Made by a program: the position numbers and the translations under genes. Below the pieces are notes generated by a model. That model made no database searches and was not told where the DNA came from. It was given only the letters and a program-made list of their open reading frames with translations. DNA of 64,000 nucleotides from contig CAVUAA010000001.1 in assembly GCA_963739345.1 (NCBI GenBank), positions 1,180,714-1,244,713 of the forward strand, read 5' to 3'. Below, piece by piece: positions 32,881 through 33,044 of the stretch. Source of the stretch: an uncultured Verrucomicrobiae bacterium (lineage in GTDB: Bacteria > Chlamydiota > Chlamydiia > Chlamydiales > JAFEGQ01). Positions within the stretch are counted from its first letter, which is position 1, and every line of letters begins with the position of its first letter.

Positions 32881-33044
32881 GCCTTGATCATCAACCGCAA
32901 ATCTATTTTGGAGCCTGCTGCGACACCCGATAGTCCGGGTACCCCTCCTCGTACCTGGCACAAACCAGGCACGTTCGTCGGGCTCCCCGACTCTCGAGTG
33001 TCTCGCGACGGCCCGAAAATAGATTTGCGGTCAATGACCAAAGC
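32881..33044 (-). ncRNA. Rod-forming structured element, copy M (candidate novel ncRNA, subfamily 1), ends 3 nt upstream of tRNA-Phe
   Basis: Perfect 15-bp helix CCGCAAATCTATTTT / AAAATAGATTTGCGG, extended by 14 more positions. Four of those are C-A on the + strand, which is G-T on the - strand. The interior is homologous to 28891-28995. Confidence 0.5.

Follow-up and report, generated by a model that had tools for sequence, protein, structure and literature searches.

MITEs of 100-155 bp are familiar from several bacteria, among them Correia/NEMIS (Neisseria), ERIC and RUP, and are often located in transcribed intergenic regions. They form long hairpins in mRNA, where RNase III cleavage or an altered expression of neighbouring genes is possible. 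Their terminal repeats and target sites (TA for Correia) differ from those of the rod-shaped hairpins described here (rods), and their parent transposases are different or unknown. Moreover, their termini are the best conserved part, whereas in the rods it is the core.

Within the IS982 family there is a published precedent, a MITE derived from IS982 in the Cardinium endosymbiont cOegib (PMC9769881). Like the rods, it is short, carries no transposase gene, has inverted repeats close to those of an IS982-family IS of the same genome, and is present in many copies in a host-restricted intracellular bacterium. It differs from them in length (~240 bp versus ~160 bp), in its unrelated sequence and in its host, a member of the Bacteroidota rather than the Chlamydiota (PMC9769881). 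The text of that study contains neither 'hairpin' nor 'secondary structure', and neither a full-length rod fold nor subterminal IS rods are reported in it. Among autonomous elements, ISLll1 of the IS982 family carries the terminal repeat ACCCGAATTGCTAG... / ACCCGAATTGCTAGTTAATT and has the terminal motif ACCC..ATTGCTA in common with the Chlamydiota IS considered here (PMC13339394). The latter resembles the family also in its single DDE transposase of ~275-296 aa, which in one metagenomic locus (L016) passes the NCBIfam IS982 equivalog cutoff. It differs from ISLll1-type elements in a ~120-nt hairpin inside each end. The rod on which this analysis centres, copy M, is unlike IS982-family IS in that it has no transposase gene and that its termini have strongly diverged from ACCC..ATTGCTA.

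The window, that is the whole 64-kb stretch of DNA that was analysed, is placed by ScpB, a protein encoded beside copy M, on a deep branch of the Chlamydiota: only two close relatives were found, with 88% and 76% identity, and all other ScpB sequences have 52% identity or less. In the preliminary description the 164-base hairpin 5' of tRNA-Phe was a candidate RNA, transcribed with the tRNA and released by RNase P. We assign a probability of about 0.88 to another reading: the hairpin is an IS982-family MITE, inserted between the promoter and tRNA-Phe in this lineage only, and not a conserved RNA gene. It would thus join the IS982-derived MITEs already known from Cardinium, in a poorly sampled lineage of Chlamydiota, and the distinction prevents the annotation of a MITE as a new RNA gene.

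Copy M at the tRNA-Phe locus

The inverted-repeat arms of copy M (32881-32915 and 33010-33044) are 35 nt long, 83% complementary on the plus strand and 94 nt apart. Both contain the exact 15-mer CCGCAAATCTATTTT (32895-32909 on the plus strand, 33016-33030 on the minus strand), so that the perfect 15-bp helix core first described is indeed present. Reading of the sequence also confirmed that all four non-Watson-Crick pairs of the outer 14 positions are C.A or A.C on the plus strand, and therefore G.U on the minus strand. In a minus-strand RNA all 29 outer positions are paired. The predicted minus-strand fold reaches -108.4 kcal/mol (z -13.7; 200 shuffled sequences all folded less well) versus -79.9 kcal/mol for the plus strand, in agreement with the strand preference proposed earlier. 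The structure is real and far beyond chance. Its limits needed correction on one side: the hairpin had been taken to run from 33044 to 32881 on the minus strand, and comparison with an empty site puts the left end of the element at 33042, 2 nt further inside. With 160-163 bp, copy M is too short for a transposase gene, the transposases of the family having ~275 aa.

Table 1. Positions of the rods and of the features of the tRNA-Phe locus in the window
Feature	Position	Strand	Evidence and context
MITE copy M	32880..33042 (32883-33042 if the duplication is 8 bp)	-	Fold; R1 156 bits on minus versus 47 on plus strand; absent at the orthologous sites of L014 and L013
MITE copy X	28862..29024	+	R1 166 bits; fold -119.5 versus -90.2 kcal/mol; between rplU (-) and 2-hydroxyacid dehydrogenase gene (+); M subfamily
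MITE copy A	1013..1172	+	R1 136 bits, fold; ends CCCCAGATTCCTACC...GGTAGTAAATCTGGG resemble the IS terminal repeat
MITE copy B	40364..40529	-	R1 141 bits, fold; ends ACCGAGATTGCTACC...; 3' of rpsJ, antisense to rpsJ
Rod E, more distant	58187..58344	-	R1 39.5 bits, E 1.8e-6; fold -97.5 kcal/mol; between DsbD and TatD genes
Rod F, more distant, shorter	19625..19765	-	R1 26 bits; fold -101.4 kcal/mol; ends ACCCGCCTTGCTATC; between Fic and methyltransferase genes
tRNA-Phe (GAA), encoded CCA	32801..32878 (ARAGORN); 32805-32877 (Rfam RF00005, 74.9 bits)	-	
TLC/NTT ATP-ADP transporter gene	31440..32783	-	Pfam PF03219, E 6.2e-73
Promoter-like site, TTGCGC (33084-33079), 18-nt spacer, TATGTT (33060-33055)	33055..33084	-	Conserved in two relatives
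Target-site duplication CTGGC, left copy	33043..33047	-	Gapless alignment to L014 once the rod and one CTGGC are deleted
Target-site duplication CTGGC, right copy	32875..32879	-	Last three bases are the first three of tRNA-Phe

The immediate surroundings of the rod are as had been described. A linker of 3 nt, GCU, separates it from tRNA-Phe, with U at -1 followed by G+1, and the next gene on the same strand encodes the NTT (TLC) transporter. This gene has an AAGGAGG ribosome-binding site ~20 nt 3' of the tRNA and a probable GTG or TTG start codon at 32783 or 32780. On the other side, copy M begins ~10 nt 3' of the TATGTT hexamer (-10). It is thus located between a conserved promoter-like site and an intact tRNA-Phe gene on the same strand, a position that fits a tRNA 5' leader. 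The same hexamers with the same spacing are found 5' of tRNA-Phe, a few bases away from it, in the two relatives identified by ScpB (TTGCGC/TATCTT in L014, TTGCGC/TATGTT in L013). Because TTGCGC-N18-TATGTT scores below the threshold of a consensus promoter scan, promoter function can only be inferred; the site is the likely promoter of the rod-tRNA-NTT unit. Between the rod, tRNA-Phe and the NTT gene there is no room for a further promoter. With a promoter-like site 5' of the rod and no space for another, transcription of the rod together with tRNA-Phe, as proposed earlier, appears likely, and RNase P cleavage at the tRNA 5' end would then release the rod. No U-tract follows copy M 3', and the rod should therefore not terminate transcription. 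Both co-transcription and release would be by-products of the site of insertion.

The comparison with the two relatives bears directly on the supposed linkage of element and tRNA. The 88% ScpB relative (L014) covers TLC, scpA and scpB. The 76% relative (L013, from JGI) is syntenic with the window over 16 kb, the common order being znuA, obg, rpmA, rplU, 2-hydroxyacid dehydrogenase, DUF2227, TLC, scpA, scpB, rpsL, rpsG, fusA and rpsJ. In both, the promoter-like site and tRNA-Phe are found directly 5' of the NTT gene, and in both the rod is missing. A search of L013-L015 with a covariance model of the family (R1, see below) returned no rod copy. Copy X is also absent from L013, since the gap between rplU and the dehydrogenase gene measures only 93 bp there, and no counterpart of copy B occurs within the 108 nt that follow rpsJ in L013, up to the end of that contig. 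A conserved linkage between the element and tRNA-Phe, which the preliminary description had put to genome comparison, thus does not hold: orthologous loci are without the rod, and copies are scattered in the window. For the same reasons, and in view of the hallmarks of an IS982-family MITE set out below, the notion of a dedicated RNA gene meaningfully linked to the tRNA finds no support. The association of copy M with tRNA-Phe is an accident of insertion and reflects no conserved design. As the empty sites come from other species, a precise loss of the rod in two lineages may be an alternative to its gain.

The junctions themselves argue for insertion. L014 reads TATCTT-GGCCGCG-CTGGC-CAGG... 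(the tRNA begins at GGCC) and the window TATGTT-CGACCCA-CTGGC-[rod]-CTGGC-CAGA.... The window aligns gaplessly to the L014 empty site once the rod and one CTGGC are taken out, as is characteristic of a target-site duplication. The duplication is the 5-bp CTGGC, possibly 8 bp. With the 8-bp alternative the duplicated sequence is GCGCTGGC, its left copy now reading CCACTGGC, the termini become symmetric and the element extends from 33042 to 32883. Clean target-site duplications were shown for none of copies X and B and rods E and F.

One further difference from L013 was seen in this syntenic region. At 37383-40022, rpsG (S7) and fusA (EF-G) are broken by several frameshifts relative to the intact L013 genes, S7 running through frames 3, 1 and 2 and EF-G alternating between frames 2 and 3. 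Either the assembly contains indel errors here or, less plausibly, these essential genes have become pseudogenes.

The rod family and its IS982-type relatives

Six related rods, M, X, A, B, E and F, are present in the window, in unrelated gene neighbourhoods and in both orientations (Table 1). Copy X had already been recognised as a relative of M in the same relative orientation; its interior is ~80% identical to that of M, and its outer 28-bp stem has an entirely different sequence in which pairing is retained. Copies A and B carry the core GAGAnnCGrGnAnnsCGAyGAACG-hairpin-GAGGAG, as do M and X. When the M/X and A/B subfamilies are compared, conservation is higher in the core than at the termini. 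The covariance model R1 was built from the four copies M, X, A and B; it gives them 136-166 bits, and the corresponding antisense strands 15-55 bits. Of the 47 pairs predicted in the alignment of these copies, 23 still pair through changes on both sides. Searches of Rfam returned only tRNAs, both at gathering score for the window and at E<=10 for 32700-33200. The idea that the outer arms were copied from local flanks was rejected: the arms are homologous among A, B and the L016 rod, and match IS terminal repeats.

A scan of JGI metagenomes with the core pattern yielded one true relative, the otherwise unrelated contig L016, with a rod at L016:3-159 (R1 126 bits). The same pattern had no match in viral contigs, and 12 matches in GTDB representative genomes were dismissed as chance occurrences in coding regions that have no rod fold. 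The L016 rod adjoins a 287-aa ORF with a Pfam DDE_Tnp_1 domain, which scores 161 bits against the IS982 equivalog NF033520 (NCBIfam cutoff 130 bits). Of the five occurrences of ACCCAGATTGC(T/A)AC in L016, two mark the ends of the rod, one the left end of the IS, and two lie at further rod fragments, of which one is inserted into the other. Full copies of an IS of 1159 bp, with terminal repeats GACCCAGATTGCTACC, were found in four other loci (L017-L020).

It is the ends of this IS that connect it with the rods of the window. The IS terminal inverted repeats are 20 bp long (GACCCAGATTGCTACCCTGA). Compared with the terminal repeat sequence ACCCAGATTGCTACC, the ends of the L016 rod have no mismatch, those of B one and those of A two; the ends of A and B, ACC(C/G)AGATT(G/C)CTACC, are the terminal inverted repeat of the IS982-family IS. 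Moreover, a rod-shaped hairpin of ~120 nt lies just inside each terminal repeat, and R1 recognises the one at the right end in two IS variants (29.5-33 bits, E ~1e-5 to 1e-6). The blocks common to the rods and the IS end are AGATACGA, CGxCGAxCGG-hairpin-CCGAGrAG, GAAGTAGAT and GCAGCAGCC, and rod E shares GAAGCGGATGGG with the IS end. This homology of both ends and core leads to the interpretation of the window rods as MITEs, each consisting of one IS-end rod between two terminal repeats. The conserved rod core is a feature of the IS ends, and presumably a cis-acting signal for the element.

Copy M itself is the less typical case. Its ends match the IS terminal repeat weakly, with a recognisable ATTG..ACC and agreement at ~7/16 positions, and those of X show only AGACC...GCT..CC. 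It is assigned to the family by its core, which is homologous to A, B and the IS ends. No autonomous IS with M-type or X-type ends was found among the loci examined. From the poor terminal match and the lack of such an IS it follows that M may have arisen from a different IS982 variant, or may have lost its mobility.

The window contains no transposase gene. A transposase cluster (P0121) that is 91% identical to the L016 transposase has five or more variants on a 1,252,598-bp contig, and the contig that carries the window's own ScpB is likewise 1,252,598 bp long. This identity of length, although indirect evidence, makes it very probable that the autonomous IS982 partner resides in the genome of the window. 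For the full IS copies, target-site duplications were not definable in the metagenome contigs because these short contigs have one flank in common and not the other; they are probably chimeric assemblies.

The following course of events would account for the locus. A derivative of ~160 bp of an IS982-family IS, deprived of the transposase gene and keeping one IS-end rod between two terminal repeats, so that the whole MITE folds as one long rod, would have been mobilised in trans by an IS982-type DDE transposase. Copy M would have landed in the short tRNA-Phe leader, between the -10 box and the tRNA, duplicating CTGGC (possibly 8 bp) and sparing both the promoter and tRNA-Phe. With transcription starting near 33047-33049, the rod would by its position now form the first ~165 nt of the tRNA-Phe/NTT transcript. 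RNase P would cut after the GCU linker and release it, and tRNA-Phe and the NTT mRNA would be made as in the relatives.

The locus is thus a clean case of a MITE placed exactly between a promoter and a tRNA, with neither destroyed. The predicted transcript, from rod to tRNA to transporter mRNA, is well suited to show how RNase P and RNase III handle a very stable leader. More generally, this deep-branching, high-GC lineage of Chlamydiota has a putatively active IS982-type IS and at least three MITE subfamilies, with a MITE density of ~1 copy per 10 kb in this window.

Three further observations concern such elements. Rods and the IS have in some cases entered other rods, in L016 (1080-1171) and L019 (95-112), at the conserved apical CTGAG|GAG (CTCAG| on the other strand), which suggests that the apical motif inside the element is a preferred insertion target. 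A second IS982 variant (L022) is flanked, outside its terminal repeats, by 83-nt inverted repeats (58-140 and 1247-1329) with reiterated TTAGGGAC; it is either nested in another palindromic element or endowed with unusually long ends. In the window, a hairpin with a 17-bp stem (49429-49475), followed by TTTTTT, is found directly after a gene ending at 49433 and has 30 of 33 nt in common with an arm of copy B. Its appearance is that of a mini-derivative that has collapsed to two terminal repeats around a 9-nt loop and now resembles an intrinsic terminator.

Strand asymmetry and competing readings

One property of the rods goes beyond what the MITE model alone explains. Taking as sense the strand that reads inwards from the element end, the non-Watson-Crick pairs of seven rods comprise 43 G.U and 7 A.C, and the bias holds for copies that are oppositely oriented in the genome, such as M (minus strand) and X (plus strand). 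In addition, at either IS end the strand that reads inwards has the more stable fold, by 8-23 kcal/mol, and the better conservation of core than of termini is the reverse of what is seen in most MITE families. Together, these features suggest that a single-stranded form, probably RNA, matters to the element. The strength of the bias in particular hints at selection on that form, although it could also reflect the shared ancestry of the copies or a mutation bias linked to transcription.

The most probable of the competing readings builds on these three features and accepts that M is a MITE. It proposes that M has been exapted and that its rod RNA adjusts the expression of tRNA-Phe and NTT, either as a target of RNase III, by stabilising the 5' end or as an insulator against read-through. 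A common role at the RNA level would explain why a rod is kept at each end of the parent IS, and the lack of a U-tract after M, where termination is not expected, is in line with it. On the other hand, the strand bias is in part inherited from common ancestors, with a possible contribution of transcription-coupled mutation, and the relatives do without the element. We regard exaptation as improbable on balance, at about one chance in four.

A more far-reaching version holds that the ~120-160-nt rods of this IS982 subgroup are, as a class, RNA devices selected in inward-reading transcripts, as read-through insulators or RNase III substrates, and that M was co-opted, its released RNA being functional. 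This is a speculative proposal that we consider rather unlikely. If it were true, the tRNA-Phe promoter would give rise to a ~165-nt RNA with a 5'-triphosphate, almost fully double-stranded and released by RNase P, which would tune tRNA-Phe and NTT expression or serve the intracellular bacterium in some separate way. In any case, the strand-biased G·U pairing and the presence of rods in both IS ends raise a small question about regulation in the IS982 subgroup.

The palindrome could instead act as DNA, in the form of a cruciform, a site for protein binding or recombination, or a hairpin in single-stranded DNA, without any relation to transcription. The conserved apical motif is found at both IS ends, where binding of the transposase or of a host factor is expected, and DNA hairpins tolerate G.T pairs as well. 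However, a consistent strand bias in oppositely oriented copies is left unaccounted for. Such activity, which seems to us quite unlikely as the whole explanation, would in fact describe a route of transposition and is compatible with the identification of the rods as MITEs.

Least probable, and very unlikely in our estimation, is that the rods are functional small RNAs or cis-acting leader RNAs, with M a dedicated, RNase P-matured RNA whose position before tRNA-Phe is selected: the very stable folds, the strong strand asymmetry, the 23 of 47 pairs maintained by two-sided changes, the location of M just 3' of a conserved promoter and the sense orientation of A, E and F, all of which lie between co-directional genes, would agree with it, but the relatives have no rod at their orthologous tRNA-Phe, rplU and rpsJ loci, M has a target-site duplication, ends and core are homologous to an IS982-family IS, copies are nested in L016, no Rfam family matches, and compensatory differences are expected if the subfamilies descend from IS variants with co-evolving ends.

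Some known structured elements were also considered. 6S RNA has a large central bubble, and was rejected because the rod has none. Integron attC sites, in which the ends are conserved and the centre varies, were rejected since the rods show the opposite pattern of conservation. Y RNA, SRP RNA and retron msr/msd are a poor fit. A hammerhead or k-turn reading of the CGAYGAACG/GAGGAG loop was rejected on account of a mismatch in order and junction topology.

Other palindromes and genes in the window

Near copy B, a perfect palindrome of 64 bp (40593-40656; AATCCGTGTCAGACATGACAACCTGACAACTC/...), with 32-nt arms and no spacer, has a bidirectional terminator-like hairpin (40542-40579) on one side and the gene of a YopT-like cysteine protease on the other. 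The latter (40657-41292; Peptidase_C58, E 1.6e-6) adjoins rpsJ, and its product is a candidate secreted effector of this intracellular bacterium.

Two palindromes of 42 bp, AATTGTCACA-N-GGGAC.GTCCC-N-TGTGACAATT, are found at 34531-34572 and 44451-44492. Both are intergenic and they are mutually 98% complementary; they could represent an operator or another repeat family. Finally, related GC-rich perfect palindromes (TGTACCGATTGGGGCC/GGCCCCAATCGGTACA) at 52633-52677 and 63599-63631 are located at gene ends, and probably constitute either terminator-like hairpins or one more small family of repeats.
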